The translations under genes were made by a program, and so were the position numbers. DNA of 64,000 nt from a virus: the IMG/VR virus record IMGVR_UViG_3300020157_000004, positions 2,279-66,278 of that record; one strand, written 5' to 3'. A model generated the notes under the pieces. That model was not told the DNA's origin. It searched no databases and was given only the letters and a program-made list of their open reading frames with translations. Shown one piece after another: positions 3,001 to 64,000 of this stretch. The first letter of the stretch is position 1. The number at the start of each line of letters is the position of its first letter.

Positions 3001-6000
3001 TTTAGTTTGTAGTCGAGATCAACGACAGCACCGAAGTCCTCTTCCGTAATCAACGAAAGGGAATCTCCGACCGGGACTGGATTCTTCGGCGTGTAAACCT
3101 CTGGCTTGCCGGAAGCCAGCGAGAACTTTACAGCCCCTTTGGTCGGCGAAGATTCACCCTTACCTGCGGTTGTTTGAACGGTCGGTTGGACGGCTCCGGA
3201 ATTACCGGGGCGACCGGGGTTTGGCGTGCCGGGCGACCCAGCAGCCTGCCCTCGAACTGGGTCAACCGCTGACCTATTCCCGACGCTATCCGATCCGATA
3301 ACGCCCGATTCTCGGCTTGTGTTCTCATTGTTGTATTCCTGAATTGTTTCTTTGACGAAGTCCACCATCTGCCCAGCAAACACTTTGGCTTCACGCATGG
3401 CTTGCGCGTGGCTCAGGGCCAGCTTCCCCTTGGCTGCTACATGCGCCATGAATTCCATCGCCATCGGCATGATTCGTTCCTGATGGAATGACAGCCAGTC
3501 AGCCGCATCGAGTTCCACTCCGCTTGCGGACTCGGCTTCCAGCCATTTCAAGACCTGATCCCTGATGCTGTGCTGTTCAAGGAATTCTTGGGCGGTCTGT
3601 GAAATGTAAACCCCTTGGTCAACTTCAGCTCCGCCTCCAGAAGTCAGCTTGCTCTGTGGTGCCTCTGAGTTCGGAACTTCGGCCAGCACGTTGTCACCCT
3701 CGCTGGCAACCTTGCTGTCGGCTGCTTCATTAAGCCCCTCCGATTTACTACCGGCCCGATCCTCACGCGCGGATGCGTCGTCAACAATTGTGTCAACGTC
3801 ATCCTGAGACAGCTTGCCTCCCTGTTCGGGAAGGAGTTGCTTGCTGCCTTTGTTCGTGCGGAGGACATACTCCGGAGTCCAATTGCTATTGGTCAGCAAT
3901 ACAGACAACGGGATCGGATTGCTGCCAGGAATCTGAGTCCACGCCGTCCGGCCAGCACCCTTGGCCGGGGTTTTGGCAACCGGCTTCTTGTCGGGAAACG
4001 GTATGACTCCGGTGGGCTTCTCTTTTGCGCCCTTAACACTGGCGGTGGAACCGTAAACCGGGACCACGATGAACTGTTTCTCACCACCCACAACCCGGCT
4101 AAGGATCAAATGCTTTCGGGTTGAGCGACCCATCACCCCGGTCTCGTTGGTGGCTCCAAGCAAAAGCTTCTTGGCCAACTCTGCGTTGGAAATATCCCAC
4201 TCACCCCATGCAGGCTCATCTTGGCCATCGCCAACTTCACCCGCAACCTCCGCCACCCTTTGAACAGCTTTGGCTTTGACGTAGGTGGCCTGCTCTTTGG
4301 TGGCCTTCTCGGCTTTCAGCCCGGCGATCATGGCCTGAACGGACTTGATGTATCCAGCCTGCCCCTTTACAGCGGCCATCTCGGTCCTGTTATTGGCAAT
4401 CAGACGCTTCTGGTGGGGGCTTAGGTCGTGCCCGGCAAATGCCAAAGCCAAAGCCTGTTCCACTTTCTTTGGTCCGGGGCGATCTCCGATTAACTGTTCG
4501 AGCTGGCTGATCCGATCGACAAGCGACCTCGCTTCAGCCTGATTCTCACCGTGATCGAGCAGGCTAATTACAGTGTCCGCTGAAGAATTAACCACCGCAC
4601 CCGGCGTTCCGGTAGGTTCCTGTGGCTTTCGTCCGGTAATAGAAGCCGCAGGCGCGGACCCTACAGAATTCGCTGGAGCCTCCGGGGCTGAACCTGATGC
4701 GGTGGAAACTGGTTTGGATTGGGCTGGCTTCCTCTTCGCCCCTGTCTCGATGGCGGCGGGGGTGGGTTTGGATGGATTCGTCTTTATCGGCTGAACCCTG
4801 TCACGGTAAGCCACTGCTTCGACTCTTGTCGAAAAGTAAGGGGCAAATCCAATCACCCTGAAATACGGTTTCCCAGTTGACTCTTCCTTGTATTCTCTAA
4901 TGGGATGGTGTTCATCACGGATAGATTTTAATGTCTCCTCGGTTTTCGCTTCGGCAGCATCCGCTTCCTCGTTACGTCGCCGCTCGTCTTGCTCTCGCTC
5001 TGCCGCGTGTTTAGCTGCCAGTGCATCTGCCCGCTTTGCCTCGATAGCAAGCATCGCGTCGATGTCGGCCTTGTCAGCACCGTTCTTGGCAAGCCAGTCA
5101 ATCATTTGCCTTCCGCTTCGATACAACTGAGGGCTGATGCCGGACAAATCGTTGATCTTCGATCCTCCAACCGAGGCAAACCAAACTGCAACATTGTGCT
5201 TGGGAATCTCCACACCCTTAGCAATTAGAATCTTGTGAAACTTATCTAGTAATTCAGAATTAGCCGCGAATTCGGCAGGAGTCAGCGATGCTGCCCCTGT
5301 CTCGGCGGTGGGGGGCTTGGCTGGAGCTGGAGCTGACGGAGCAGCCCTGCGAAGCACTGGAGCCTTTACCGAAGTTGTTTCTCCTGGGCGATTCCCGATT
5401 TTTTCACGGGACGGTGTTGATCCAGTCCCCGGAACCGTCGTCGCGGTGGTTTTATTTTCCGGAGAAATTACAGCGGGCTGGCTGCTCGCGGTGGGGGCCG
5501 ATCGTTCGCCTGGATTCTGCTGACTGTTTAGCCACACCTCGGGGTGGATGAGTTCATCCAACTCTTGAGCCGTTGCCGCCGCCTTGTCGTGCGTTTGCTT
5601 GGCCAGCCTCATCTTGTTGGCAAGCTCGGAGACATCAGCTTTGGAAGCTTTAGCCGCCTTGGCGGAAACCGGCTGAGCTGCCACCGGCAAATCTCCTTTC
5701 AGACCACCAAAGTCCAAATCCCGGTTGGAGGCGTGGAGTTCGGCCACCGCTTTGGGATTGCTGATCTTGGCGTTGTTGGCGGCGTCCAGCGATTCCCTCT
5801 CGGACAATCCGCTTTTACCGTAAACAGCGGGGTCTTCCGGAAATTGCTTTGCCTCGTAACCGAACTTCCCGCCGATCCGTTTGAACTCGCTCAGGATGTG
5901 CGCCCGAAGTTGTTCACCGATGGAAACGCCAGCGGGAAGAACAGAGTCCAGTTGCTCTGCAAACCGGGCGGCTGTTAGATCATCAACCCCCTGCGTGGTC

Positions 6001-7361
6001 AGTATCTTTGAGATGCCCCTGGCTCTTCCGGGAAGGCTTTCCGCCGCTGTAAATGGCGTCGTGGTGGGCGGAGGCGTGTCTGACCCCGGCTTGTTCTTGA
6101 AGTCGAAACTTGGACCCTTCCAGTCGGACGGCTTGGTGATCGGCTTGGTGTTGGAGAACAATCCCGGTATCGAGAAACCAAGATTGGAACCAGCAATCTC
6201 AACCAACCGTCGCTTGAACTCGCGAGGGTCTTCCTGTGAAAGCCTGTAAAGTTCCGGCGATTCAGCAACCGCCATCGTCGTGTCAAGCACAGCTTGATTG
6301 ACCCCGAAGTGGATCGCCTTCTGGGCCGACGAACTTTCAAGCTGCGTCACGCCCTCTTCGAGACCGGCTTTAATCAGCTTGGTGGAGAGCACATGCGACA
6401 GCTCACCCACCTTCGGGATGATAGCGCCAACCGCTGCCCCCTTTGGATTGAAGTTGCCATCTTCATCCGCTCCGAAAGTAAGCCCTGTTCCCAAAGCCTC
6501 CGCAACCCTTCCGGGTCCGATCGCTGCGCCCATGCGTTTCGCGACCAGAATCTTTGCAACCGCATCCGCCGCCCCAAGAGACATCTTGGCCAGCGTGCTT
6601 TTCCAGCCAAAATCCCCGTCCTGTTTCTCCTCTTCGGCTGCGCTTTCAATGGCAGCATCAACCGGCATCTTTTCCGTGCCGTGCGCCGACCGCATGTTCC
6701 CGCCACCCTCCGGGTAATCAATCGCGGCAGCCGCAGTGTCAGCCAAAACCGCCTTAGCCCATCGACCGGCTTCATTACCAACTCTACCGGGGATGGCCAG
6801 AGCTTTGGGAACCCACTCCAGCGGCGTGTCATTCAGCCCGCCTTTTATGGCATGATCCACCCGCTTGTTCTCGGTGTCCTGCGCCAGTATCTCAAGGCCC
6901 ACCGGCAACTTCTTGTCCGCAAAGTATGCCGTTGATCCGTCTCCGGTTTCGTTGGGCCTGGCATTTACAGGAACATCACCCTGGCCGAAGTATTCGTCAG
7001 GGAACTGAATCTTTCTGATCTGCTTCTCCGTGTAAGGCAGCGTGTAATTTGGAGTGATGTCACCAGTGTCATACTGCCGAGCCTCTGATGGTGATAATCC
7101 TCCGGGATCACCAGCGCCAAGCGCGTCCGAAATGAAAGCTCTGGTTGCTGAAGGATGGAGGCTGCTGTCGCTTTCCAGTCGCCGGGCCATCTCGCCCTGA
7201 AGCTCACGGCGCTTTGGAAGATTCTCGAAGTCATAGGAAAAGTCCGGGTCTTGCAGGAACTCCGGATAATTTTCCCCGATGTGTTGCGTCAGGTCGTTCT
7301 GACTCATCGAGGAGAACTGATCGCCCTGTCCCCGGAAGTAATCTAAGACCCCGTTCGCCAT
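1..7361 (-). CDS. Giant polyvalent/ejection-type virion protein, N-terminal part (runs off window; 2 zincin HExxH domains plus a kinase-like domain)
   Basis: ATG at 7361 (MANGVLDYFRGQGDQF...). Segments translated by hand in this frame are open down to base 1 (...RDRVQDYEQLQDRLVELL). The track has no ORF ending in this frame, consistent with no stop. Motifs: HEVAH (2726-2712), HELGH (383-369), LGRGSES..VYKL / DVNARN / YDP (about 1450-920). Confidence 0.85.
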   Translation of the reverse strand, partial: MANGVLDYFRGQGDQFSSMSQNDLTQHIGENYPEFLQDPDFSYDFENLPKRRELQGEMARRLESDSSLHPSATRAFISDALGAGDPGGLSPSEARQYDTGDITPNYTLPYTEKQIRKIQFPDEYFGQGDVPVNARPNETGDGSTAYFADKKLPVGLEILAQDTENKRVDHAIKGGLNDTPLEWVPKALAIPGRVGNEAGRWAKAVLADTAAAAIDYPEGGGNMRSAHGTEKMPVDAAIESAAEEEKQDGDFGWKSTLAKMSLGAADAVAKILVAKRMGAAIGPGRVAEALGTGLTFGADEDGNFNPKGAAVGAIIPKVGELSHVLSTKLIKAGLEEGVTQLESSSAQKAIHFGVNQAVLDTTMAVAESPELYRLSQEDPREFKRRLVEIAGSNLGFSIPGLFSNTKPITKPSDWKGPSFDFKNKPGSDTPPPTTTPFTAAESLPGRARGISKILTTQGVDDLTAARFAEQLDSVLPAGVSIGEQLRAHILSEFKRIGGKFGYEAKQFPEDPAVYGKSGLSERESLDAANNAKISNPKAVAELHASNRDLDFGGLKGDLPVAAQPVSAKAAKASKADVSELANKMRLAKQTHDKAAATAQELDELIHPEVWLNSQQNPGERSAPTASSQPAVISPENKTTATTVPGTGSTPSREKIGNRPGETTSVKAPVLRRAAPSAPAPAKPPTAETGAASLTPAEFAANSELLDKFHKILIAKGVEIPKHNVAVWFASVGGSKINDLSGISPQLYRSGRQMIDWLAKNGADKADIDAMLAIEAKRADALAAKHAAEREQDERRRNEEADAAEAKTEETLKSIRDEHHPIREYKEESTGKPYFRVIGFAPYFSTRVEAVAYRDRVQPIKTNPSKPTPAAIETGAKRKPAQSKPVSTASGSAPEAPANSVGSAPAASITGRKPQEPTGTPGAVVNSSADTVISLLDHGENQAEARSLVDRISQLEQLIGDRPGPKKVEQALALAFAGHDLSPHQKRLIANNRTEMAAVKGQAGYIKSVQAMIAGLKAEKATKEQATYVKAKAVQRVAEVAGEVGDGQDEPAWGEWDISNAELAKKLLLGATNETGVMGRSTRKHLILSRVVGGEKQFIVVPVYGSTASVKGAKEKPTGVIPFPDKKPVAKTPAKGAGRTAWTQIPGSNPIPLSVLLTNSNWTPEYVLRTNKGSKQLLPEQGGKLSQDDVDTIVDDASAREDRAGSKSEGLNEAADSKVASEGDNVLAEVPNSEAPQSKLTSGGGAEVDQGVYISQTAQEFLEQHSIRDQVLKWLEAESASGVELDAADWLSFHQERIMPMAMEFMAHVAAKGKLALSHAQAMREAKVFAGQMVDFVKETIQEYNNENTSRESGVIGSDSVGNRSAVDPVRGQAAGSPGTPNPGRPGNSGAVQPTVQTTAGKGESSPTKGAVKFSLASGKPEVYTPKNPVPVGDSLSLITEEDFGAVVDLDYKLKDHLTTLTGSGSENLKGYRVDPSEVNLHDPAEQERLGITPEIKDAIEKALGVRIVFVNQKGRILFEGIHSIPGYVFISDHTPVNQDTLPLFLHEVAHEMAIHHPDLLLKLFKVLKEGLKEGVWDAELAKQASILFKFEGGVEPTADNINVRTEAAAELLRKLGRDPGFWSKLAKKSPELFKQLADIAMGILTKIINAFRNVVGGTLEGKAKDYEKLKSQVAALIAEYADRRSGTGKIRTKTYETEAIKTTDNGIDRQTGAAVVMDAGAGITGRAQTIAKRNLGKANERAIAIAEEAFTRIVNNLSRTSAPGEDYTSKLAKLVKGGVWGRYSEEDARAILADAYIARYISSPLDHISDPEIRSGIAELRKYIPLIPDNKVKDLFLHSVDSPIIKEGGELLWAVSDAAWPSLWKEDTKDDLIEHVVELVGSLEDVAGFLDRNKIDYSLSGLNLRSEITKAINKARQAYLDIDDGKYNGKSPEMEEVFGNNSAAAQILFTFSQPFRDWMSNSPDYAPKNKLLGRGSESVAVLADGLVYKLTHQPIALQDHYKLLTFNDSLRDAFYTGEGGSVMPILQRIKLMNQLPGMTPTQLVGITEDGKYIVRQPSSGKQATEAWSVGGKPMTEESSQQRVWEEWAKPNGWTRLETTKMVPGGGDVFQSVYLNRLPNGNIVLAIDVNARNLGVNDQGKVECYDPVLKEINPKDADKPIRVRDEHVFGKINNLPSPETIAPVAPRQPDIEGKLPNSITGNMRSGEIRFSLADMGKPEVYKPKNPVRFGDPLSSITTEDLEAISRLNSLLESGREVFPSKANLSDPLVQAHLGGFTPELKDALQSAFGLRIALVNQPRSILFNAVQLPGYIFVSDHKGSAAMRFIGHELGHEIEVHDPQTFKAISKLLLDALNEGELGKLTDAVKRRHASNKVPISEGELTGEVVGDLLGEAFEDPALLEKLAKKNPTVFAKLAKFAMDVLNKIVNYLRQSGPSLRDRVQDYEQLQDRLVELL
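683..3110. repeat. 37-bp direct repeat pair (683-719 and 3074-3110) marking an internal domain duplication
   Basis: GGACTGGATTCTTCGGCtTGTAAACCTCcGGCTTGCC vs GGACTGGATTCTTCGGCgTGTAAACCTCtGGCTTGCC: 35/37 identical, offset 2391 nt (in frame), both encoding GKPEVYxPKNPV. Confidence 0.9.
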
Positions 7362-26381: not shown

Positions 26382-26474
26382 GGTAACTCTTCCAAATGAA
26401 ATCATTCCACACTGAAAATCATTTTCAATGTTTTTCTTGATTCAAGACGGTTGGTGTGTAATTTTGGAAATAGA

Positions 26475-26566
26475 TATGAACGATAAGCTCAGAGATGGCG
26501 CGACAGAGAGGCGTCCATCTTCACTCGAAACGTAATCGCGCCATTCTCTGAAGCGCATGGTTATAC
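26475..26566 (-). other. Integron attC-like recombination site
   Basis: Minus strand GTATAAC-catgc-GCTTCAGAG-A-ATGGCGCGA...TCGCGCCAT-CTCTGAGC-ttatc-GTTCATA: AAC/GTT cores, 5-nt spacers, L boxes with single extrahelical bases. Confidence 0.7.
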
Positions 26567-26572
26567 CGCATC

Positions 26573-26863
26573 ATGAAAGCAATCGAAAATACAACGCCCG
26601 AAGAACTGCTCAAAGAAGCAGCAACGCAACTCATCACCGAACAGAAGCACGCGGCTGTCGCGCAAATCAAAGACACGCTCAAGCGCGTGGCACAACTCAG
26701 CAACGACATCAAGACCATGCAGCAGGCCGTGGAGAAGAAACAGAAGGAACTCGACGGCGCGAATGGGCGGCTGGAAAAGCTGCGCGCCGGTGACTGGTCT
26801 GTGCTCCAAGACCTGAAGGCCGAAAAGACTGACAAACCGCAAGAGGCGTCCGATGCGGTATAA
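26573..26863 (+). CDS. Coiled-coil hypothetical protein in an apparent gene cassette
   Basis: 96 aa; flanked by the perfect 13-bp inverted repeat GTTATACCGCATC (26560-26572) / GATGCGGTATAAC (26852-26864). Confidence 0.75.
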   Translation: MKAIENTTPEELLKEAATQLITEQKHAAVAQIKDTLKRVAQLSNDIKTMQQAVEKKQKELDGANGRLEKLRAGDWSVLQDLKAEKTDKPQEASDAV

Positions 26864-26968
26864 CGTCCGCATGAGCGAAGGCGCGGACAAGTGACGGTCG
26901 AATTTGCGAGAGGCGTGCGACCTGTGGAATAGACGCGAGCAGCCGAACAATCATTAGGCACACCAAGT

Positions 26969-27352
26969 ATGCAATATCAGGTTGATACTTTCCGGCTGTC
27001 AAAAAATAACCTGCTTACGAAAGCTCAAGTTGAATCAATTCTTGAAACTATCGGAGAAAGGCATCGCGATGTGTTATCAAAGTCTAATCACAAAAAGACT
27101 CTGAAAGAAGCATCTAGGAAAAGCGGGTTGTCAATAAACGCCACTGCTAAAATACTTGGAGCGCATTCATTGAAATTGACCGGCAATAAGATAAGCGTCC
27201 AGGGTTTTAGAAGGTCTCAGCTTTTGCATGATATAGCCGACGGATGCGATTGGGTAAATTTAGAAAGAAAATACGGAGCAAGCATGGTAAGAACTGCTTG
27301 CTACGATTTCGTAAGGCGTTTTTCGCCCAAGGTTATTTCTGACAATTTGTGA
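26969..27352 (+). CDS. AT-rich basic hypothetical protein (possible HTH; moron-like)
   Basis: 127 aa, lower GC than neighbours, TLKEASRKSGLSINATAKIL resembles an HTH. Confidence 0.55.
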   Translation: MQYQVDTFRLSKNNLLTKAQVESILETIGERHRDVLSKSNHKKTLKEASRKSGLSINATAKILGAHSLKLTGNKISVQGFRRSQLLHDIADGCDWVNLERKYGASMVRTACYDFVRRFSPKVISDNL

Positions 27353-35956: not shown

Positions 35957-36131
35957 TTCTGGGCCGTTTGTAGCTTGAGAACTCACCAAAGACAAGGACT
36001 CATGCGATCCGAAATGCGCCACCGACATGATACGAAACGGGGATTGAATTCCCCTTGTTATCAATCGTTTATGCCAATGTTAAATACTTTTATTTGCTTC
36101 CGATCAACGATTGGTGCTACTTCTTAAAACC

Positions 36132-37322
36132 ATGAATGAAACATTATTGCCGCCAGTAGAGACCGATTTTGCCCACAAGATACCCGTCCTTCTGCGAGGA
36201 AGGGAAAGTTTTGTGAAAGTTACCGACAGTCGAAAGAGGCCGATCAGGGGTCTTTGGATTCGATCCGACCGTTACTACGCTCAAATGAGCTTGATGGACT
36301 ATACGACCGGAACAAAAAGGGTCCGAAAGGTTCCACTGATGGGGGTCAATACTGTCTCCCAAGCCGTAGTCGCAATGAATCAAATGATTGCGGAACGGCG
36401 TGATGGCAAGCTGGTGGTCTCAAAGGTGCAGCCAACATTCCGGGTGGCTGCCGACCACTACCTTGCTCATGAGCGGTCGATGCACGACGGCAAAAGGGTG
36501 AGCACTCTTCGCGGTGAAGCCAAGTGTCTCAGGTCGTTGGCCAAGTCATTCTCGTCAGAGACAATGGACAAAATCAAACCGCTGGATGTTCGCTCCCACA
36601 TATCCAGACGGCAGAGGATTGATCGGGTCTGTGGCCGGACGGTGAACCACGAGCTAGTGGTATTGGCCAACTTGGTGAAACACTGCCGAATCGAATTTGG
36701 TATGACCAACAACCCGTTGGATGGAGTGGTTGCGCTACCCTACAAATCCGATCGCAGACCCCTTCCAACCACCCTGGAGATACAGACCCTCTGTGACTAC
36801 GCAGTTGCCAACATGATGAATGGTCAGCTTCTTTCCGACTTCGTCCGATTCCTGGCCTCCACCGGCGCAAGACGATCGGAGGCGTTGGTTGTAGCTTGGT
36901 CTGACGTGGACACGGCCATGCGGCGGGTTTGCATCGGTGGATACAGGAAGTCAAAGAACGGACTGGAACGATACGTTGATTTTAATCCAGCCCTTGAATC
37001 ACTGATGGCAGAAATGAAGGCCCGCAAAGACCCGGACTCGCTTTGGCTTTTCCCCACACCAAGGGGAGGGGACATCCCGTCAAGCGGAATGGAAGCAAGC
37101 TTTGCCATTGCCCGCAAAGCCACCAAGCCGGAGCGCATCGTCGGCTGGCATTCAATGCGCCATTATTTCGCCAGCCAGTGCGTCATGGCGGGGATTGATT
37201 TCATGACCATCGCCGCATGGCTTGGCCACCGGGACGGAGGGATTCTTCTCGGCAAAGTTTACGGACACCTGAACGACTCCCACCGTCAGAGCATGGCGGC
37301 GAAGCTGCTTCTTGCCGCATGA
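36132..37322 (+). CDS. int: Tyrosine recombinase / phage integrase
   Basis: STGARRSE (R), KSKN (K), HSMRH (HxxR), LGH, VYGH (Y). Lacks the IntI-specific insertion before patch III. Confidence 0.9.
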   Translation: MNETLLPPVETDFAHKIPVLLRGRESFVKVTDSRKRPIRGLWIRSDRYYAQMSLMDYTTGTKRVRKVPLMGVNTVSQAVVAMNQMIAERRDGKLVVSKVQPTFRVAADHYLAHERSMHDGKRVSTLRGEAKCLRSLAKSFSSETMDKIKPLDVRSHISRRQRIDRVCGRTVNHELVVLANLVKHCRIEFGMTNNPLDGVVALPYKSDRRPLPTTLEIQTLCDYAVANMMNGQLLSDFVRFLASTGARRSEALVVAWSDVDTAMRRVCIGGYRKSKNGLERYVDFNPALESLMAEMKARKDPDSLWLFPTPRGGDIPSSGMEASFAIARKATKPERIVGWHSMRHYFASQCVMAGIDFMTIAAWLGHRDGGILLGKVYGHLNDSHRQSMAAKLLLAA

Positions 37323-40265: not shown

Positions 40266-40655
40266 ATGAACCCGCTTGTGCCAGCAACTTCCTACAACGA
40301 ACTGAAGAAAAGGTTTCCCAATGCCAGTGATTATTTCCTGCGGAAAAACTCCTATCCGTTATCCCATCCGGCTGGTGGTGTTCCGAAAGATACCCAGCCT
40401 GAACCGGCTGTTCGCGATGAACCCTTGGGGAAGGCTAAGGGAAAAGAAGCAAACTCAGAGCGCTTTCGCGTCAGCGTTACGAGCTATCGAACACGGCTCA
40501 TCGACCCCGACAACCTGACGCCGAAGTATTTCATTGATGCGTGCCGATACGCAGGACTGATCCCGTCGGACGATCCGAAGACCATCGACCTGTTAGTTAA
40601 ACAGGTTCTCTGTAAATCAAATCCAAGAACTGAAATCGTAATCGAAAAAATATGA
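40266..40655 (+). CDS. RusA-like Holliday junction resolvase
   Basis: DPDNL..K.F.D...GLI.DD...PRTEI motif. Confidence 0.75.
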   Translation: MNPLVPATSYNELKKRFPNASDYFLRKNSYPLSHPAGGVPKDTQPEPAVRDEPLGKAKGKEANSERFRVSVTSYRTRLIDPDNLTPKYFIDACRYAGLIPSDDPKTIDLLVKQVLCKSNPRTEIVIEKI

Positions 40656-42139
40656 CTGGCTTCAATCATGTTTACCTACCAGTGCCCGATCTGAAAAAGC
40701 CGCTGCGGCAAAAGACCGCCTCTGTTGACCTGTCCAAGCTTGACCGTCTTCCGCCTCATTCCATAGAGGCCGAGCAGGGAGTTCTTGGCTGCATTCTGCT
40801 TTCCCCTTCCGAGTGCATTAACCTTTGCTTGGAGAAGGTAAAGCCGCATGACGATGTGTTCTACGACTTGCGGCATCAGGAATTGTTTTCCACTCTGGTA
40901 AGGATGCAGGAGTCGCGTAAGCCGATTGACCTAATTACAGTGCAGCAAGAACTGCATAACTGTGGAAAGCTGGAGGGAATTGGTGGTCTTTCTTACCTAT
41001 CCGGCCTGATGGACGCGGTTCCAAGCGCGGCAAACCTCGCCTACTACCTCGACATAATCCGGGAGAAACACGTTCTTCGGAGGATGCTTCAGACCTGCAC
41101 GGGCGTTTTAGGCAGGGTTCATGACCATGAAGGTGAGGTTGACGCCCTGATGGAGTCGGTTGAGAAGGAGATAATGGCCATCCGCGATCTCCGGATAACG
41201 AACGGCAAGGAGTCCAGAAAGCAGTCACTTATCCGGGTTACTGATGCCATAATCAACAACTCCAAGAACAAGGGGGCCACGATCGGTCTGGCCACCGGCA
41301 TACCAAAGCTCGACGGGATGATTAACGGATGGCGGCCCGGCAGGCTCTACGTTCTTGCAGCCCTGTCCAAGTGGGGTAAATCGAGCCTGGCCTTGCAGAC
41401 TGCCGACTACTGCGCGGCAGCCACCGACAGCAAGGGGAACCATACCTGCCCGGTTGCCTACTTCTCCCTTGAAATGCCACGAGATGAACTAAATGAGCGG
41501 TCACTTGGCAGGGAGTCGGATGTTCCATCCCACGAGATTCAGAACCCATCCTGCCTCAACCCTGACGACGCCATCAATGAATCTGACAAGCGCCGAAGAA
41601 CATTGAAGATTCAGCGACTCAGAGATACCAACGGGGCAATCTCAAAGTGGCCGCTGCTTATCGTCGATGAACCAGGCATCCCCATATCCAAGATGCGGGC
41701 CGCCGCTCGCCGAATGGTGGTTGAGGACGGAGTGAAGCTGATCGTGGTGGACTACCTGCAACTCATGGAGGGAACCACCGAGTCCCGAGGCAAGAACAGT
41801 TCCCGCGAGCGGGAGATCAGCTCGATCAGCAAAGGCTTAAAGGACATGGCGATGGAGTTGAAGGTTCCTGTAATTGCTCTGGCGCAGCTCAACCGGGAGT
41901 TTGAGAAGTCAACTGGTCGCAAGCCAAAGCTGTCCGACCTGCGGGAATCAGGGTCGATCGGTCAGGACGCCGACTGCGTGATCTTCCTCTACGGGAACGA
42001 GGATCAGATCGAGCTTCCGATCGCAGCGACCAAATGCCTTGTCGCGGCCCAACGCGGCGGGGCCACCGGAGAGTTCATGTTGACCTTCAACAAGCCGCTG
42101 TTTCGCTTTGAAGCCCACACCCACAAGCCGCTTCCGTAA
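40652..42139 (+). CDS. dnaB: Replicative DNA helicase DnaB-like
   Basis: PPHSIEAEQGVLG, Walker A ALSKWGKS, FSLEM, IVVDYLQLM, AQLNR, DLRESGSIGQDAD. Confidence 0.95.
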   Translation: MTGFNHVYLPVPDLKKPLRQKTASVDLSKLDRLPPHSIEAEQGVLGCILLSPSECINLCLEKVKPHDDVFYDLRHQELFSTLVRMQESRKPIDLITVQQELHNCGKLEGIGGLSYLSGLMDAVPSAANLAYYLDIIREKHVLRRMLQTCTGVLGRVHDHEGEVDALMESVEKEIMAIRDLRITNGKESRKQSLIRVTDAIINNSKNKGATIGLATGIPKLDGMINGWRPGRLYVLAALSKWGKSSLALQTADYCAAATDSKGNHTCPVAYFSLEMPRDELNERSLGRESDVPSHEIQNPSCLNPDDAINESDKRRRTLKIQRLRDTNGAISKWPLLIVDEPGIPISKMRAAARRMVVEDGVKLIVVDYLQLMEGTTESRGKNSSREREISSISKGLKDMAMELKVPVIALAQLNREFEKSTGRKPKLSDLRESGSIGQDADCVIFLYGNEDQIELPIAATKCLVAAQRGGATGEFMLTFNKPLFRFEAHTHKPLP

Positions 42140-42428: not shown

Positions 42429-42623
42429 ATGCCAAGGGTTCCAGAGCGCGATTACGAGGAGCCGGTCAACGGTGAACCGTGGCCGGAATGCTGCGGAGAG
42501 CTGATGCAAGGCAGGCTTAACGGAAGCTTTATCTGCCTCGAATGCGAGTCGATCTACACCATCCCAAGATACAAGGGCGAAGAGCCTGACATAGAGGACA
42601 CATTTGAAGATGAAACCAGCTAA
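42429..42623 (+). CDS. Small zinc-ribbon protein
   Basis: CCG...CLEC; ATG 42429. Confidence 0.5.
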   Translation: MPRVPERDYEEPVNGEPWPECCGELMQGRLNGSFICLECESIYTIPRYKGEEPDIEDTFEDETS

Positions 42624-42930
42624 GACAATTACCCGCCGTTCGCAGCAGCGCATGGTTAGGCCGAGGACGAACAACCTCGCAGCAACCGTCTTTGTATTTG
42701 AAAGCACGCGGAAGCCGTATCAAACACACGTCGTCTATCTCGACCAAGCAAGCTGCTATGTGGATCACCCAGGATGGAAACACACCGCCACGCTTGAACC
42801 CGCAGTGTGGATAGAACACCTGATGAACAATCCCGCTGAACGCGAGAAGCATATCGAAAGCATCTGCTATCGGCCTAACAACAAAGCTCTGCCGCAGGGT
42901 GGGGCGAAGAAAGGCAACGATGAACACTGA
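42610..42930 (+). CDS. Hypothetical protein in apparent gene cassette (both termini encoded by attC-like sequence)
   Basis: Bracketed by the inverted repeat GTTAGGCCGA (42655-42664) / TCGGCCTAAC (42870-42879). Confidence 0.65.
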   Translation: MKPAKTITRRSQQRMVRPRTNNLAATVFVFESTRKPYQTHVVYLDQASCYVDHPGWKHTATLEPAVWIEHLMNNPAEREKHIESICYRPNNKALPQGGAKKGNDEH

Positions 42931-42973
42931 GACTCAATCGCCCCACCCTGTTGGCAGCAGCGCATGGTTAGAC
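42873..42973 (-). other. Integron attC-like recombination site (complete)
   Basis: Minus strand GTCTAAC-catgc-GCTGCTGCCAAC-AGGGTGGGGCGA...TCGCCCCACCCT-GCGGCAGAGC-tttgtt-GTTAGGC; exact RYYYAAC and GTTRRRY cores, extrahelical base in the L box, 101 bp. Confidence 0.8.
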
Positions 42974-43219
42974 CCATTGCGTGACCAAGTGCGCGCCGAA
43001 CTTGAACGTGAACGCGCCAGAAACATCGACGCACAAGTAAACGGAACGGGCGGTAAGTATCTAGCCGAACTCCGCGCCGAGAACGAGAAGCTTCGCGTAG
43101 TAGCTGACAACTTCTGCGCCCTGATCTTGGTTAGAAGCAGTGATAGCACGCAGTTTGAAAAAGATTTGTTACACATCTACAACCAACTCCCTCACGTCAA
43201 GGAAAGGAACAAACAATGA
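42920..43219 (+). CDS. Coiled-coil hypothetical protein starting inside the attC loop
   Basis: RBS AAGAAAGG and ATG 42920 lie within the attC variable loop. Confidence 0.65.
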   Translation: MNTETQSPHPVGSSAWLDPLRDQVRAELERERARNIDAQVNGTGGKYLAELRAENEKLRVVADNFCALILVRSSDSTQFEKDLLHIYNQLPHVKERNKQ

Positions 43220-47242: not shown

Positions 47243-47875
47243 GCCAGTCGGTCGGCCCGCTCTTCGCAAGTTTATCGGATAGCACTGCTCGGATCACAGT
47301 TGCGGCCCTCATGGCTAACGCTAAAACATCCGGCTAGGCTGACAGCCAACCCACCTTATGGGTCGCTTGGAAACGTCGGGGCAAAATGACCACGGAAAAC
47401 GACTATGGGTCGGATACGTGGTGAGAAAGGTCAGACGTTCAAATGTCAGCGGAGGCCGGTCACTGAATAATCAGCGTGACGCAAAACTGCACCGTTCAGG
47501 AAGGCGAAAGGAATCGCTTGTGGCTATCACGAATCTAGGGAATCACCTCCACGGACAATAGGAATCCCGTGGTTAAATAAAGGAGCTTGGCTTATGGCCC
47601 GCAAGGGTCACAAGTGCGCCGACTTACAACCGGGCAACAGGCAGGCGTTGGCTAAAGCGCATCGTTGGGGCAATTTGCTTCTAAGGTGCTAGTCCTTCCA
47701 ACGTCCGAAAGTGGCTCATCCTACCTAACTAGACAGCACGGAAAGACGTGCGCCGCGCAACGACGCGAGGCGAGGGGACGGGTTTGCCTGTCCGTTTGCT
47801 CACTCCACCGTCCTCACGAAGGGCGACTGGTTTAGGAAGTTTTCCGCCCCCTAGCGGGTTCGCCTGCTGGGGGGT
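47243..47875 (+). ncRNA. Candidate large structured non-coding RNA
   Basis: No credible ORF; more than 10 helices including nested ones, GCAA/UUCG/UUUG loops, and 5'/3' closing helix GCCAGTCG (47243-50) / CGACTGGT (47824-31). Confidence 0.65.
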
Positions 47876-59294: not shown

Positions 59295-62200
59295 TCAGCG
59301 GCGGCTGCGACGGCTGCGGCTGCGTGATCTGGAGCTTCCGCGACGCACGCTGACTCTTGGGGTGGTGGAACCACCAGTCCGGCGTCTCGAACTACCGGCC
59401 CGGCGTCGCAACCTGCTGACCCGACCGGAACCCGTGTCGGCCAGTTGTTCCACGTCACTGCTTTCAGAGACACCGTCAGGGGACTGAACCTGATTGCGGC
59501 TGCGGCCACCACCGCTCCCTCTTGAGCGAAGCTTCACTCCACCTGTTTGGGTGGAGGACTCTGAATCTAATTCCTCGCCAGCGTCGCGGGTGCGCGCGCG
59601 CGTAGTTCTGGAAGATGATCCACCACCCTCACTCCTTGGCGTCCGGCTTGGTGATGTGTTAATTACAGAGCCGGACGAGTCGGAGAAAAAGGACTCACCC
59701 ATCTGCCATCCACCCAAAGTCTTGCCCCATGCCACCCGCTGTGAAGGGGACAACGCGGCAAGGCGCTGCTCATACTCGGAGTCGGTCAGCGTCTTGCCTC
59801 CGTTAGACCTCGTGGCCGGATTCATTGCCGAGTAGTCGCGACGAACTGCGGCCTCCGCCTTCTTCTCGTCCATCCCACGGTCATGGATGTAGTAGTCGGT
59901 CAACCGCTGCATCTGACGCTTGGCTTCCCTCATGTGCTCCGCTGCCCCGGCGCTGTCGCCCGCAAGCATGGACTCGTGGGCCTGGTAGAGTGCGTCAGCC
60001 CACTTGGTCTTGATGCCGGTGGTGGGTCCGACTGCATACGGGATTGCCTTGGAGGCGTTGCTCTTTGGGTCAACAATCTTTCCCGCCTCCGTCATGGCCG
60101 ACTGTCCAGATACTCTTGACTTATACCCAAGCATCGACCTCAAGTCAGACGCAAGCGGGGCGAACCTGTCCGCGAGACCTTTTATCACAATGTCCCAATC
60201 CTCGGGCGGAAGGACAAAGAATGCGGTCATTGATTTTACAGCATCCGTTATGAGCGTGAGAGGAAGAAGTTTGGACCCAATGTCGAACCCCTTTCCGCCC
60301 TGCTGAATGTTCAGTGCTGTGAGCACGACATCCCCAACCTGACCAAGGTTTGACAACATTGCCGACGCACTGCGAAGCGTGAGTCCGTTACCGTTCCAGA
60401 AGGAGGCATCGCTGGGGATTATCTTTCCGAACTGGTGAAGAACCTTCCGGTCATATTGACCGGGCACTTCAAGGCTCGCGATTCCAAACAGGAAGGCGGC
60501 CAGCCCAAGCATCATTGCAGTGGATAGCGCGTGCGTGAAACGGGATGGATTCGACCGGCCCGCCACAGACCGGAACTCACCGAACAGCTTGCCGGTGTAG
60601 TCAAAGATGTAGCCCCTCAATGAGACGGCAGCCGACAGCATACGGTCGGACTTGATTGCCTGCGCGCGGTTGATTCCGTTCGGTGAATTGATAAGCCCGA
60701 TAATCAATCGCTTGAGGCTGTCCATCTGCGCGTCCGTAAACAACGGAACATCGGCGGTCCCGCCGCCGCTTCTCTGATGGTAGTCAAGCAGGACGTGCTC
60801 CAGCGGTATGCCTGCCATCTGAAGCATTTCCCGGATGTCGGCAGTGTGCTGTAATTTGTCACTGCTAAGGAACCTGCGGGACATATCTTCCGAATTTACA
60901 AGCGTGTCCCTGGTTACTCCCGGACGAGCGCCGTGCAGCAGTGCGGCCCGCTTCAACACCTTGACCAGATTATCAACGATGCCTTTGACCTGTGTGTTGA
61001 GAACGAGGTCCGAATTAGTAAGCCCGAACTTTGACTCTATGCCTTTGGTGGTTCCGGAGAACGCCGCCCCGGCCACCCGCAATGCTTTTCGAGTCTTCGG
61101 GAACGGTGAAAGGAATGAGCGGGAGAGGTCTTGGTCGTCTTGGAACTCGGCAGCTTCACGCAAAGCCTGCCTCACGGTTTCCATAAACGAACCCTTGCGA
61201 CCAAAGCCAAGGCCGCGCACATCCTCGATGCCGTCCTGAATGTATTTGCGATAGAGCGATTCAGCCCACTGAAACACGCTGGCATAGGTTGCCGGATGCT
61301 TGCTCTTCAGATAGCGAAGCGAGCTTTGCAGGCCGGGAACCGAGGCTGCAATTCTGGTGGCATACTTTGAAATCACAGCAGCGGAACCCGCCAGTGATTT
61401 GATGAGGGCAACCGTGCGCCCGAACTCGTTGAGCTTCGAGCTGACCAGATACACCGCTGTCATGCCCTGCGTAATGTTTCGGAGGGCAACCTTCGGACTC
61501 ATCAATAGCGATCTCACAGCAAGTCCGATACCGCCACGAATGACTTTGCCCAGCGGTGAAGGCGTGGTGTCCCGGCGCAGCAACACTTCATTCAGCCTGC
61601 GGACAGCGAAGTGCAACAGCTCCAGTTGAGATAGGCTCCATCCGGTCGGCAGACCAATCGGATTGCCGGGCCTTGTTCCCGGTTCAACCACTGTGATTCT
61701 TGATTGTAGTTCGTGCTCGGCCTGAATCAAAGCCTTGGCCAGTTCCAGAAGCGAAGAGGCCGCTGCCCTCGCTTCCATGCTTCTCGCGTCCTGATCGGTC
61801 AGTGTTCCGTGATCGTAGAACACGCTGGGGAGTTCAAGCAGGCCAGCCTGATTGCTGAATTCGCTGTTCTTATTTACAGTGTCAACGGCTCCAAGGATGT
61901 CCTGCTTCGACTCCACTGCTGGCTGAATTCGCTTGTCTGCCAGCTTCATATACTGGGTCAGCTCGGAGGACACCTCGTTGATGACGGTATCCCTCACCGA
62001 CCTTCCAGTGCCAGTCGGGTATGCGGCCACGAGTGCATCGACCAGCTCACCAACCGTTGCAAACTTCATGCCCCCACCGCTGGCTTCCACCAGTGCGGCC
62101 ACCGATCGCAAGGCAGTCCTCATGTTGCCTGACCGGATGATGGCGAGATCGTCGCGGGTGGAGTCGAGGACGTGCGAGGTGAGCACGTCGAACTTACCGG

Positions 62201-64000
62201 CCAACCCATTCCAACCCTTCACCACCGGGTCGGTTGAAGTCGCCGTCAGGTCGGTGGCAGGCGTGAACGCTGGCAGCTTCAGGAGGTCGGCCAACTGGCT
62301 GGACACTTCCACGCCGTCGGGGTTGATGATGCGCGTGAACTCAAACTTGCCAACACTCGCGGCAAACCGGCTTAGCTGTCGGCCAGCCACTTCCACTCCG
62401 GTTGCCTGATCTCCCCGCTTCTGGTTTACAGTAAGCAGTGCCCTCGTGTATTCGAGCATCCGTTTGAACCACGCCATGTCCTCGGCTGTAATCACATGGC
62501 CGCTTGGCAGGACACTGCCTGCCGCCAATAACGATCCGGCCCGGCGGCCAATGTTACCGGCTTCGTTCTGCATCCGCCGATACAAGTCCATGTTCCCGTT
62601 GAATTCAGGATGGGACTTCAGTGCGGCACTTCGCAGCGCTGGAAGATCGCGTGCCCAGAATCTATCCCGGTTGGATACGGCTGCGATTTCACCCACTGTG
62701 TTTGAGTAGTCGGCGGCCATCGCCTTTGCGCGACCACCCAGAACGCCACCAAGGTTCGATGCCACCTGATGAATCTGCGTCACGAACTCAATGGAGTTCC
62801 ACTTGAGCTGGAGTCGGGAAGGGGAAAGGCTGGTCGAGCTGTCGAAGTTCGACGGGTTGAGCAGCACCGGCAAGTCGTGCTCAAGCACCAGCTTTATCCC
62901 GCGATAGGTGGGCGTGTCGTAGCCAAGTGAGCTTGGCGTGTTGGGGCTTATCCCGCTGACGTAATCTGATTCCGCAGCCTCGTAGCCGGTGACATACCTC
63001 TCCGCGCTGTCACGCCATTGCTCAATGCTTCGCTGAACCTTGTCGGGGAAGCTCTGGAAATTGAAGTCGCTGACTGTGATTGAAACCTCGGGTTGGTCGA
63101 GGCTTCCAATCGAGAACGGTTCGAGTCGAACGCGATCCGCCGCTGATGCCGAGTTGGCAGTTGAGGCGTGGCTGTTCAGCATCCGTTTGTAGTATCCGTT
63201 CAACGCGCTTTCGGACAACTGGCGCAGCCGCCTGAACTCGGGAGATGCCCGCAGCGATTCAAACACACCCACCGCAATGGAGTAGGCGTCGAGGTCGGCC
63301 TTTAGTTTGGCCGCTTCGCGCCCGCTCGCATTCGCCTGTGCCGCCAGCTTTGCCCGCTCCTTGCTCTTCATCCTCACCAAGGAATCGAACATGGTCTTGG
63401 CCGCCTTCTTGTCACCGTTTGAAACGCGCAAGGCAATCTCCGCCAGCTTGTCCATCGGAACGTCACCGCGCTCCTGTTCCACCAAGGTTGTCACGGCATC
63501 CCGGAAAACATCAGAGGATGCCATCATCTTGAAGAGGGTATCGAGCGTGTTCTCCGCCACCCCAAACTCGCCTGAGTGGCCTTGCAGCGGCAGCAACGGT
63601 GCATCGCCAACCGGATCACGCATCCATTCCAGTATCCGCTTGCCCGCCTCAATTGCGGCATCAGGGCTTGGTTCACCCGCCGCCCGGTAGGAGGCGTTGT
63701 CCACGACCGACGCAAGCCTGGAGGCAAACACAGCCACGGCAGACTGGTTCAACCTCAGCCACTCAACCATCTGCGAGTTTATGACATCACCGGTCAGCCC
63801 GCCTTCTCCGGCCATTGCCAGCACAGCATCGGACAGAACCAGCTCTGCAAGGCTGGCGTCTTCCGAAGCTTCGCGTGAACCCGCCATCAGCTTGTTTACC
63901 TTGTCCCGTTTGGCCTTCTCTTCAGCCGTCTGCCGGTCCTTCAGCATCGAGAACGAAAGGTCGATTTGCTGTAATACAGCATTCACCGCGAGGGTGAAGG
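59295..64000 (-). CDS. Giant virion protein, C-terminal part (5'-truncated by window edge), ending in an Arg/Ser-rich tail
   Basis: The frame stays open upstream of the called GTG 63986 to the window edge (..FTLAVNAVL..); helical Ala/Leu-rich body; tail RRGSSRSRSRSRRSRR. Confidence 0.8.
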   Translation of the reverse strand, partial: FTLAVNAVLQQIDLSFSMLKDRQTAEEKAKRDKVNKLMAGSREASEDASLAELVLSDAVLAMAGEGGLTGDVINSQMVEWLRLNQSAVAVFASRLASVVDNASYRAAGEPSPDAAIEAGKRILEWMRDPVGDAPLLPLQGHSGEFGVAENTLDTLFKMMASSDVFRDAVTTLVEQERGDVPMDKLAEIALRVSNGDKKAAKTMFDSLVRMKSKERAKLAAQANASGREAAKLKADLDAYSIAVGVFESLRASPEFRRLRQLSESALNGYYKRMLNSHASTANSASAADRVRLEPFSIGSLDQPEVSITVSDFNFQSFPDKVQRSIEQWRDSAERYVTGYEAAESDYVSGISPNTPSSLGYDTPTYRGIKLVLEHDLPVLLNPSNFDSSTSLSPSRLQLKWNSIEFVTQIHQVASNLGGVLGGRAKAMAADYSNTVGEIAAVSNRDRFWARDLPALRSAALKSHPEFNGNMDLYRRMQNEAGNIGRRAGSLLAAGSVLPSGHVITAEDMAWFKRMLEYTRALLTVNQKRGDQATGVEVAGRQLSRFAASVGKFEFTRIINPDGVEVSSQLADLLKLPAFTPATDLTATSTDPVVKGWNGLAGKFDVLTSHVLDSTRDDLAIIRSGNMRTALRSVAALVEASGGGMKFATVGELVDALVAAYPTGTGRSVRDTVINEVSSELTQYMKLADKRIQPAVESKQDILGAVDTVNKNSEFSNQAGLLELPSVFYDHGTLTDQDARSMEARAAASSLLELAKALIQAEHELQSRITVVEPGTRPGNPIGLPTGWSLSQLELLHFAVRRLNEVLLRRDTTPSPLGKVIRGGIGLAVRSLLMSPKVALRNITQGMTAVYLVSSKLNEFGRTVALIKSLAGSAAVISKYATRIAASVPGLQSSLRYLKSKHPATYASVFQWAESLYRKYIQDGIEDVRGLGFGRKGSFMETVRQALREAAEFQDDQDLSRSFLSPFPKTRKALRVAGAAFSGTTKGIESKFGLTNSDLVLNTQVKGIVDNLVKVLKRAALLHGARPGVTRDTLVNSEDMSRRFLSSDKLQHTADIREMLQMAGIPLEHVLLDYHQRSGGGTADVPLFTDAQMDSLKRLIIGLINSPNGINRAQAIKSDRMLSAAVSLRGYIFDYTGKLFGEFRSVAGRSNPSRFTHALSTAMMLGLAAFLFGIASLEVPGQYDRKVLHQFGKIIPSDASFWNGNGLTLRSASAMLSNLGQVGDVVLTALNIQQGGKGFDIGSKLLPLTLITDAVKSMTAFFVLPPEDWDIVIKGLADRFAPLASDLRSMLGYKSRVSGQSAMTEAGKIVDPKSNASKAIPYAVGPTTGIKTKWADALYQAHESMLAGDSAGAAEHMREAKRQMQRLTDYYIHDRGMDEKKAEAAVRRDYSAMNPATRSNGGKTLTDSEYEQRLAALSPSQRVAWGKTLGGWQMGESFFSDSSGSVINTSPSRTPRSEGGGSSSRTTRARTRDAGEELDSESSTQTGGVKLRSRGSGGGRSRNQVQSPDGVSESSDVEQLADTGSGRVSRLRRRAGSSRRRTGGSTTPRVSVRRGSSRSRSRSRRSRR

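Follow-up and report, generated by a model that had tools for sequence, protein, structure and literature searches.

How does a phage genome come to hold, among its small genes, hairpin-forming sequences that resemble the recombination sites of bacterial integrons and that at the same time supply stop codon, start codon and protein termini to the genes on either side? The question is raised by IMG/VR record IMGVR_UViG_3300020157_000004, a viral sequence of 66,278 nucleotides (nt) estimated to be 83% complete, of which 64,000 nt (hereafter the window) were analyzed. The sites in question, termed attC, are imperfect hairpins recombined as folded single strands by the integron integrase, IntI. 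The original prediction, made from the sequence letters, placed one complete attC-like site and one half site around a small gene near 42.9 kb and a related site near 26.5 kb, and proposed that antisense-oriented cassettes are shuffled among phage operons by an integron integrase of the host. The analysis presented here indicates that the window contains three sites, of which two are intact and one has decayed; it is highly probable that these are attC sites of the integron type, and that the phage is a carrier of captured cassettes that itself lacks IntI.

The site at 42.9 kb (Table 1) lies within a run of small + strand genes, immediately 3' of a gene of the DnaB type. Its left R box, GCCTAAC (42873-42879), is answered by a right R box, GTTAGAC (42967-42973), and its inner stem, composed of positions 42895-42907 and 42938-42950, is a perfect inverted repeat of 13 nt. 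When the fold of 42866-42980 was compared with those of 200 shuffled sequences, z-scores of -4.3 and -4.9 were obtained for the two strands, and on neither strand was any of the 200 as good. Both of the sequence identities on which the original prediction drew occur above chance. Specifically, the 18-mer GCAGCAGCGCATGGTTAG is present in exactly two copies in the window, at 42642-42659 and 42954-42971 (0.08 matches expected; two copies reached in one of 100 shuffles), within a direct repeat that reaches 25 nt with 23 identities, and the 12-nt core AGCGCATGGTTA has a third copy at 26552, within the 26.5-kb site (three matches as compared with 0.17 expected, a number reached in none of 100 shuffles). 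In addition, the gene between the two 18-mer copies, gene A, is bounded by complementary cores as proposed: GTTAGGCCGA (42655-42664) and TCGGCCTAAC (42870-42879) are perfect complements over 10 nt.

A search of viral contigs with the 18-mer returned four loci, in three of which the same hairpin architecture was found; one 18-mer match, L007, has no hairpin and was rejected as a chance match. Additional loci were obtained by way of gene A homologues. From these, nine seed sites, picked by pattern with AAC and GTT, were used to build covariance model R1, which gave 49 matches at E<=1 in 79 sources (673,315 nt), located on the gene strand in all gene-oriented loci; a second model, R2, was built from all 49 R1 matches. 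A generic AAC...GTT hairpin scan had ranked the 42.9-kb site best, and was judged too crude to be used. In the alignment, 85.2% of paired cells are complementary, as compared with 60.6% in shuffled alignments and 29-40% when pairing partners are slid, and double-change cells number 215 versus 75 in shuffles, a value reached in none of 500. Of the 23 pairs, 21 have changed on both sides, helices 2-4 are paired in 83-97% of cells, and although the alignment is fitted to a model that favors structure, the inner stems differ in nearly every site. The covariance-model scan that the original prediction had called for thus produced more than 40 relatives with strong covariation, and the structure of the sites and their membership in one family are established.

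The sites of this family span 59-151 nt; typical attC sites measure approximately 57-141 nt. Most loops are of 27-31 nt, varying little around 29 nt and showing partial conservation of sequence, a uniformity probably due to their carrying a ribosome-binding site (RBS) and first codons. Among 43 distinct sites, the three AAC positions are conserved at 98, 84 and 86% and the three GTT positions at 98, 95 and 100%, figures in which some 35 non-seed matches were not chosen by the AAC/GTT pattern. Similarly, a bulged TT (100 and 95% conserved) and an extra C (81%) lie always in the GTT-side arm of the gene strand.

Within the window, R1 detects three sites and nothing further better than E 0.4, and R2 detects the same three and nothing further better than E 0.095. 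The 42.9-kb site scores 62.2 bits with R1, of which it is itself a seed, and 61.0 bits with R2. The second intact site, at 26.5 kb, scores 78.8 bits with R1 (likewise as a seed) and 67.3 bits with R2; its L box differs from that of the 42.9-kb site by compensatory changes. Considered alone, the fold of the 26.5-kb site is weaker (z -2.0, with nine of 200 shuffles as good), and its R-box stem in situ is only 3 base pairs (bp) long. The third match accounts for what had been described as a half site at about 42636-42664. Its right arm is indeed intact, and matches the arm of a site in another locus (L063) that lies 5' of the same gene A core. What was taken for half a site is, however, a full-length decayed one that has lost its inner stem: possible remnants of left R and L boxes are found at 42515-42531, and the inner-stem positions are unpaired in the alignment. 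This decayed site scores 29.2 bits with R1 (E 5e-6, as a non-seed) and 37.2 bits with R2, the alignment of which includes it. Its interior is the 3' part of an open reading frame (ORF) on the + strand, 42429-42623, encoding 64 amino acids (aa) with two Cys pairs and a zinc-ribbon-like look. The AAC-box remnant (42519-42521) falls between the Cys pairs, and the C-terminal half of this ORF may have arisen from former attC sequence. A further stretch of the + strand, 47570-47672, matches R1 and R2 weakly (E 0.1-0.6), with a right end of the form AGCGCAT..GTTGG and an RBS and ATG inside; given E of about 0.1 with R2 and no AAC box, it was not counted as a site, and may be another decayed one.

The 26.5-kb site is followed by a 96-aa ORF with which it would form a cassette. 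The ends of this presumptive cassette (from 26558 and to 26864) are perfect complements over 13 nt, and the stop codon of the ORF is the TAA within the terminal TATAAC box. A search for relatives of the 96-aa protein gave none. Within the 26.5-kb site, a mini-ORF of 19 codons (26477-26536, + strand), with an ATG that overlaps the AAC box, runs as far as the loop. Directly 3' of the cassette is the left arm of a second attC sequence type, for which no matching right arm is found before the next gene (ATG at 26969). The CCGCATGAGCGAA type forms a full hairpin upstream of the gene A core in another locus (L062), and its right arm forms the loose end of a contig from sequencing run X4, in front of the same core; the left arm in the window is, by its sequence, probably a relic.

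Comparison with integron sites of bacteria bears on both the identity and the strand of the phage sites. Read along the gene strand, a phage site opens with a box whose last bases are AAC. A spacer of 5 nt separates this box from helices of 3 bp and then 5 bp, after which a single purine is left unpaired. The variable stem that follows is closed by a loop of about 29 nt. In the return arm, a bulged TT precedes the 5-bp helix, an extra C divides that helix from the 3-bp one, and a second 5-nt spacer leads to a box whose first bases are GTT. The class 1 attC located behind aac(6')-IIc on a plasmid (L085), read along its top strand, presents an AAC box, 5 nt, 3 bp, an extra base, 5 bp, another extra base and then the stem, with a return arm that is free of extra bases. 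Because the phage sites show this class 1 plan mirrored, the gene strand of the phage reads as the bottom strand of attC. An unpaired central spacer and extrahelical L-box bases on one arm only are described features of attC sites (Nivina et al. 2016, PMC5027507).

R2 also detects textbook sites directly, namely the class 1 attC at L085:3029-3102 (35.8 bits) and that at L084:2615-2690 (24.3 bits), each on the intI1 strand and opposite the resistance cassettes. In chromosomes, R2 matches 27 of 151 sampled genomes of the Burkholiales order, the order containing Ramlibacter, and all five R2-matched genomes that were tested carry an IntI above the curated cut-off (471-499 bits). Where matches share a contig with intI (G065, G074, G054 and G163), they form clusters upstream of intI on the same strand. 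Since class 1 sites match as well, the matches among the Burkholiales order do not identify the host of the phage; the Ramlibacter genome that contains a distant gene A relative has no model match. Taken together, structure, covariation and this cross-detection of textbook and chromosomal attC sites uphold the complete site proposed at 42.9 kb. The proposed antisense orientation is likewise established: matches lie opposite the cassette ORFs in the three bacterial arrays inspected (L104, L105 and the class 1 locus L085), whereas in the phage loci matches, ORFs and intI all occupy one strand, and the matches are on the intI strand in every case. An ORF on the attC top strand, transcribed from a promoter lying at the integrase end, is typical of cassettes though not strictly defining, and is not what is seen at the phage sites. 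One of the bacterial arrays, L105 (G065:C1:283500-291500), contains about 20 matches in 8 kb at a spacing of about 400 nt, some 7 kb from the IntI gene, and is a dense chromosomal integron with sites that resemble the phage family closely in sequence.

That the phage sites form boundaries of the cassette type is established by the relatives of gene A. Among 23 such proteins, gene A included, conservation extends only from V-R-P (GTTAGGCC) to R-P-N (GGCCTAAC), the codons of the two R boxes, corresponding to positions 42655-42879 (core A). Outside the R boxes the family is hypervariable even at approximately 90% core identity, and a DNA alignment of five loci places the core boundaries at the same points. 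A subset of the homologues has one type of N-terminal linker (MKNTETQS..QRMVRP and diverged forms) with C-terminal tails that are all different, which fits a unit consisting of attC followed by core; that attC and core are not strictly linked is seen in other homologues, whose upstream sites are unrelated.

The complementarity of cassette ends points in the same direction. The sequence following GTT at the start of a core and that preceding AAC at its end are complementary over 10 nt around core A and over 13 nt around the 26.5-kb gene. With near-duplicate loci excluded (L064, L037, L021, L072 and L032), the family offers 16 pairs of adjacent sites at distances below 900 nt; a perfect complement of at least 8 nt is present in 10 of these, versus 13 of 1387 non-adjacent pairs; the R stems that sites form with their own partners are 3-8 nt. 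A cassette excised as a circle would require such complementarity of core start and end to restore its attC, a property expected neither of an RNA hairpin nor of homology linkers. Two contigs of run X4, an independent metagenome, display the junctions in other surroundings: in one, core A stands behind a different attC arm, with similarity beginning at 42653, and in the other, 42873-42963 recurs with three differences in 91 nt (97% identity) beside unrelated upstream sequence. Contigs of four sequencing runs, three of them possibly from the source sample, contain no joint across the cassette, a result uninformative with respect to rare excision.

The claim that reading frames run through the attC arms, and that the loop holds the stop codon of one gene together with the RBS and start of the next, is borne out by the ORF list and the sequence. 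The frame of gene A reads ..RPNNKALPQGGAKK.. across the left arm of the 42.9-kb site; gene A takes its N-terminus from the upstream attC arm and its C-terminal tail from the next attC. Within the loop, an RBS-like motif precedes the start codon of gene B, and the stop codon of gene A follows, the resulting 11-nt overlap of start and stop being the basis on which translational coupling of the two genes is suggested. Gene A is not matched in Pfam or PHROG, nor does Foldseek find anything in the PDB at E<=0.001. Its AlphaFold model, with a mean predicted local distance difference test score (pLDDT) of 62, is ordered only at approximately residues 22-85, and the attC-encoded ends fall below a pLDDT of 50. 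Gene A is a real gene on the + strand: comparison of the window with an independent contig gave 13 listed differences, 11 of which occupy third codon positions in the + frame.

Gene B, for which no downstream R box was found, has relatives at a single locus; there the match covers residues 1-24 only, and an R1 site occupies the same place. The attC-encoded GSSAWLD peptide of gene B also opens an unrelated methyltransferase ORF in L008, the locus that, with L091, was read by hand and in which ORFs likewise end and start inside sites. Several of the ORFs in L008 and L091 stop, like that of the 26.5-kb cassette, at the TAA of a ..TAAC box. Of the 18-mer, one copy is translated as SQQRMVR and the other, in a different frame, as GSSAWLD, which marks the repeat as a sequence kept as DNA and not as a protein repeat.

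Which integrase would act on such sites? The original prediction named one encoded by the host, and on this point it is not sustained: no IntI is found in the 66,278-nt record, and three related phage contigs carry their own IntI beside the arrays. In the record, TIGR02249 matches the tyrosine integrase of the phage alone, at 24.9 bits (24.9-30.2 bits across searches, with a cut-off of 265). By contrast, the IntI of one site-carrying viral record, G001, scores 228 bits with TIGR02249 (same cut-off) and 76 bits with XerC; its best match in the PDB is VchIntIA (2a3v, E 1e-35), with which it aligns free of gaps through the segment we take to be the IntI-specific insert, and the aligned R, K, H-R, H and Y, presumably the catalytic residues, are conserved. 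With IntI1 it shares 36% identity. G001 carries terminase, portal and methyltransferase genes, and its sites number seven to eight at 51-59.6 kb and one at 171-266. A 142-nt overlap of the contig ends, perfect but for two mismatches, shows that the array runs into intI; although classed as linear, G001 is, to judge from this overlap, probably circular or circularly permuted. Its intI starts 38 nt past the last AAC box, and a small cassette beside it is tandemly duplicated. This cassette, encoding a small membrane protein, occurs twice in tandem next to intI and again at the other contig end (L083 1-460 and L008 14553-14694), and the attC sites of the copies differ by compensatory changes.

The association of sites with IntI is established beyond G001. 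R1 sites lie directly upstream of intI, on the same strand, in L090 (which is G001), in L091 (seven sites) and in L092 (one site), that is, in three of three members of the clade at 51% identity or more, the IntI proteins of L091 and L092 being 51% identical to that of G001. Four loci with IntI-like genes at 31-36% identity have no R1-type sites by the model, and neither does L097, where the IntI match is partial (42%). Relatives of the G001 IntI form at least 69 protein clusters at 45-94% identity, none of which, among those listed, is named integron integrase, and among the listed matches the named bacterial integron integrases reach at most 38% identity, leaving a gap below the 45-94% group.

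The mechanism suggested by these observations may be set out as follows. The site family occurs in phage contigs from freshwater and soil, where one-directional arrays of sites are interspersed between small accessory genes, ending in three contigs at an IntI gene of a distinct clade. A phage cassette would consist of an attC followed by a gene core, with its ORF on the attC bottom strand. The attC would provide its own gene with an RBS, a start codon and the first 10-25 or so codons, and would also give the preceding gene a C-terminal tail and stop, unless that gene ends at ..TAAC with the TAA of the box. We infer that crossover takes place at AA|C of the left box, 42878|42879 in the 42.9-kb site, and any new exchange in the phage of the window would need an IntI acting in trans, from the host or from a co-infecting phage. 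More tentatively, and with slightly more doubt than belief, the family may represent a phage-specific class of integron, with an IntI clade of its own and bottom-strand cassettes that slot in frame into operons, and with sites shared with integrons of the Burkholiales order. Were this so, each attC would be a translation-initiation module that also encodes disordered tails of the neighboring proteins, and long phage operons of cassettes would run into intI. As the site family is shared, host IntI could then act on phage cassettes, also in carriers that lack IntI, like the phage of the window, and phage IntI on those of the host.

Several observations weigh against regarding the window sites as integron-type attC sites in a carrier phage. 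No IntI is present in this record, incomplete as it is; only one of 17 viral site-carrying records searched (G001) has one, and four such records estimated to be 98-100% complete have none. Only two intact sites are present in the window and they are 16 kb apart: the decayed site and the 42.9-kb site are separated by about 210 nt, and the 26.5-kb site stands alone. In published attC sites of mobile integrons, G:T mispairs are commoner on the bottom strand than on the top (Nivina et al. 2016, PMC5027507); the gene strand of the phage family has 26 G:T versus 34 A:C cells, and so the bottom-strand bias is absent. Finally, core A is paired with several different attC sites both upstream and downstream. 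One crossover point per site does not alone explain variation at both flanks of core A, and homologous exchange in the conserved attC ends may contribute.

Much of this could be accommodated if the attC sites of the window were fossils, that is, if cassettes were once inserted by an integrase and the sites are now inherited linkers that hold translation signals and no longer recombine. The absence of IntI from the record would fit such a history, as would the loss of the inner stem from the decayed site, the missing right arm of the second-type site at 26864, the lack of a recognizable downstream box behind gene B, and the short in-situ R stem of the 26.5-kb site. Yet the intact sites of the window, at 61-79 bits, score as high as those in the IntI-bearing arrays L091 and L092 (24-62 bits), all conserved unpaired positions are retained in both, and the 42.9-kb attC recurs almost unchanged in another context from an independent metagenome. 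We regard a fossil state of the sites as unlikely, although it is the most serious of the alternatives.

The variability of core A on both flanks, the 12-25 nt of identical sequence common to the sites, and the presence of RecT and exonuclease genes in the phage invite a different explanation, in which the conserved hairpin ends offer short stretches of homology for the swapping of modules by the phage RecT and exonuclease or by general homologous recombination, the hairpin itself serving translation or mRNA processing with no part for IntI. Exchange of this kind predicts neither the complementarity of core start and end (10/16 versus 13/1387) nor asymmetric extra bases in the exact class 1 geometry, nor would it lead one to expect that a single model detects textbook and chromosomal attC sites or that arrays end at IntI in three of three clade members; as an account of the whole it is improbable. 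Least credible of all is that the hairpin is simply an RNA element controlling processing or translation of the operon mRNA, its likeness to attC being convergent, since the strong + strand RNA fold (-51.6 kcal/mol, z -4.9), the RBS, start and stop in the loop and the loop length of about 27-31 nt in most sites are set against G:U pairs that are rare and unbiased toward the transcribed strand (593 Watson-Crick, 9 G:T and 17 A:C cells in the L-box and inner stems), the lack of any Rfam family match anywhere in the window, matches of the same model to bacterial integron sites that are antisense to the cassette genes there, and cassette boundaries that it leaves unexplained, with the proviso that an RNA role may coexist with a DNA role.

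The reading of the window sites as attC sites of captured cassettes places them beside known systems with which they share much. As in class 1 integrons and chromosomal integrons of the Burkholiales order, there are AAC/GTT R boxes, spacers of about 5 nt, L-box extra bases and a variable terminal part; as in bacterial integrons, arrays are one-directional, lie upstream of intI and on its strand, and comprise cassettes whose start is complementary to their own far box. The differences are that phage ORFs lie on the bottom strand and point toward intI, whereas bacterial ORFs, in the arrays checked, lie on the other strand and point away from it; that phage RBS and start codons lie in the attC loop, with ORFs running through the arms; that the phage loop is nearly constant; and that the window has no intI. 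Short repeats at gene borders that accompany modular shuffling are also familiar from phages, in the form of the regulatory stem-loop cassettes (PeSLs) that flank small genes in T4-type phages and the 'boundary sequences' of lambdoid mosaics; these act through homology and promoter or terminator function, and are not known to have R/L-box geometry or a dedicated tyrosine recombinase. Clusters of at least two attC sites close together in the absence of intI are termed CALINs (clusters of attC sites lacking integron integrases).

Integrons, attC clusters and methyltransferase cassettes in phages are already known. Integrons and CALINs have been reported in 21 phages, with 17 CALINs, mostly from cultured sequenced phages, and of six phage attC sites assayed with IntI1, five were recombined (Qi et al. 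2023, PMC9892861). As there, attC sites in the present family occur in phages both with and without IntI, and DNA methyltransferase cassettes are found, as in L008. The typical phage cassette structure given in that report is one of same-direction cassettes; in its main text, neither bottom-strand coding, loop translation signals nor an IntI clade of the G001 type is described, and there is no mention of antisense or opposite orientation, of Burkholderia or of Betaproteobacteria, although its supplementary tables might list related cases (Qi et al. 2023, PMC9892861). In a search of full-text literature, which did not extend to supplements, no paper on bottom-strand-coded phage cassettes or on a phage IntI clade was found, and the phrases 'phage integron' and 'viral integron' appear in none of the papers searched. 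What is not found in print, then, is a cassette coded on the bottom strand with translation signals embedded in its site, and the associated IntI clade.

Beyond the sites and genes A and B, scans with Pfam and PHROG identify in the window RecT, an exonuclease, a RusA-like protein, a virion structural protein and a tail-fiber protein. Used as a query against viral contigs, the DnaB-type protein revealed no close relatives of the phage, and no cultured phage is similar apart from short DnaB matches, in five of 50,697 records and over no more than 7% of the query. Two very long ORFs on the - strand occupy the ends of the window, at 3-7361 (2453 aa) and 59295-63998 (at least 1567 aa).

Table 1. 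Positions in the 64,000-nt window of the attC-type sites, the genes they border and two further phage genes.
Feature	Position	Strand	Remarks
Complete attC-type site (42.9 kb)	42871..42975	+	attC bottom strand corresponds to window + strand
Loop of 42.9-kb site, 30 nt	42908..42937	+	AAAGG 42910-42914; ATG 42920-42922; TGA 42928-42930
Decayed attC	42513..42663	+	right arm intact from ~42636; R box GTTAGGC 42655-42661
Complete attC-type site (26.5 kb)	26473..26568	+	AAC 26479-26481; GTT 26558-26560; heads + strand island
Putative cassette: attC and 96-aa coiled-coil-like ORF (26573-26863)	26481..26863	+	read from sequence
Left arm of second attC sequence type (..CCGCATGAGCGAA..)	26864..26900	+	directly 3' of 26.5-kb cassette
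Gene A, 106 aa	42610..42930	+	ORF listed as 42604/42610..42930; no assigned function
Gene B, 99 aa	42920..43219	+	start in attC loop; ..PVGSSAWLD.. read across right arm
Tyrosine integrase of phage	36111..37322	+	PF00589 and phrog_1 matches; not an integron integrase
DnaB-type ORF	40652-42139		name based on short matches with annotated helicases of phages

In the main, integrons have been known as platforms on which bacteria carry genes for resistance and defense, and the orientation of their cassettes is treated as fixed by strand-selective recombination. The cassettes described here are coded on the strand that is recombined, and the recombination site itself contains start signals and encodes protein ends. 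If the arrays are active, phages would be able to swap accessory genes, among them methyltransferases and small unknown proteins, at the resolution of single genes, and translation through a DNA recombination site would prove to be tolerated. Direct traffic of cassettes between phage and host would then also be plausible, because the site family is common to bacterial chromosomal integrons. The two intact sites of this IntI-less phage offer ready substrates with which such questions of array activity may be tested.

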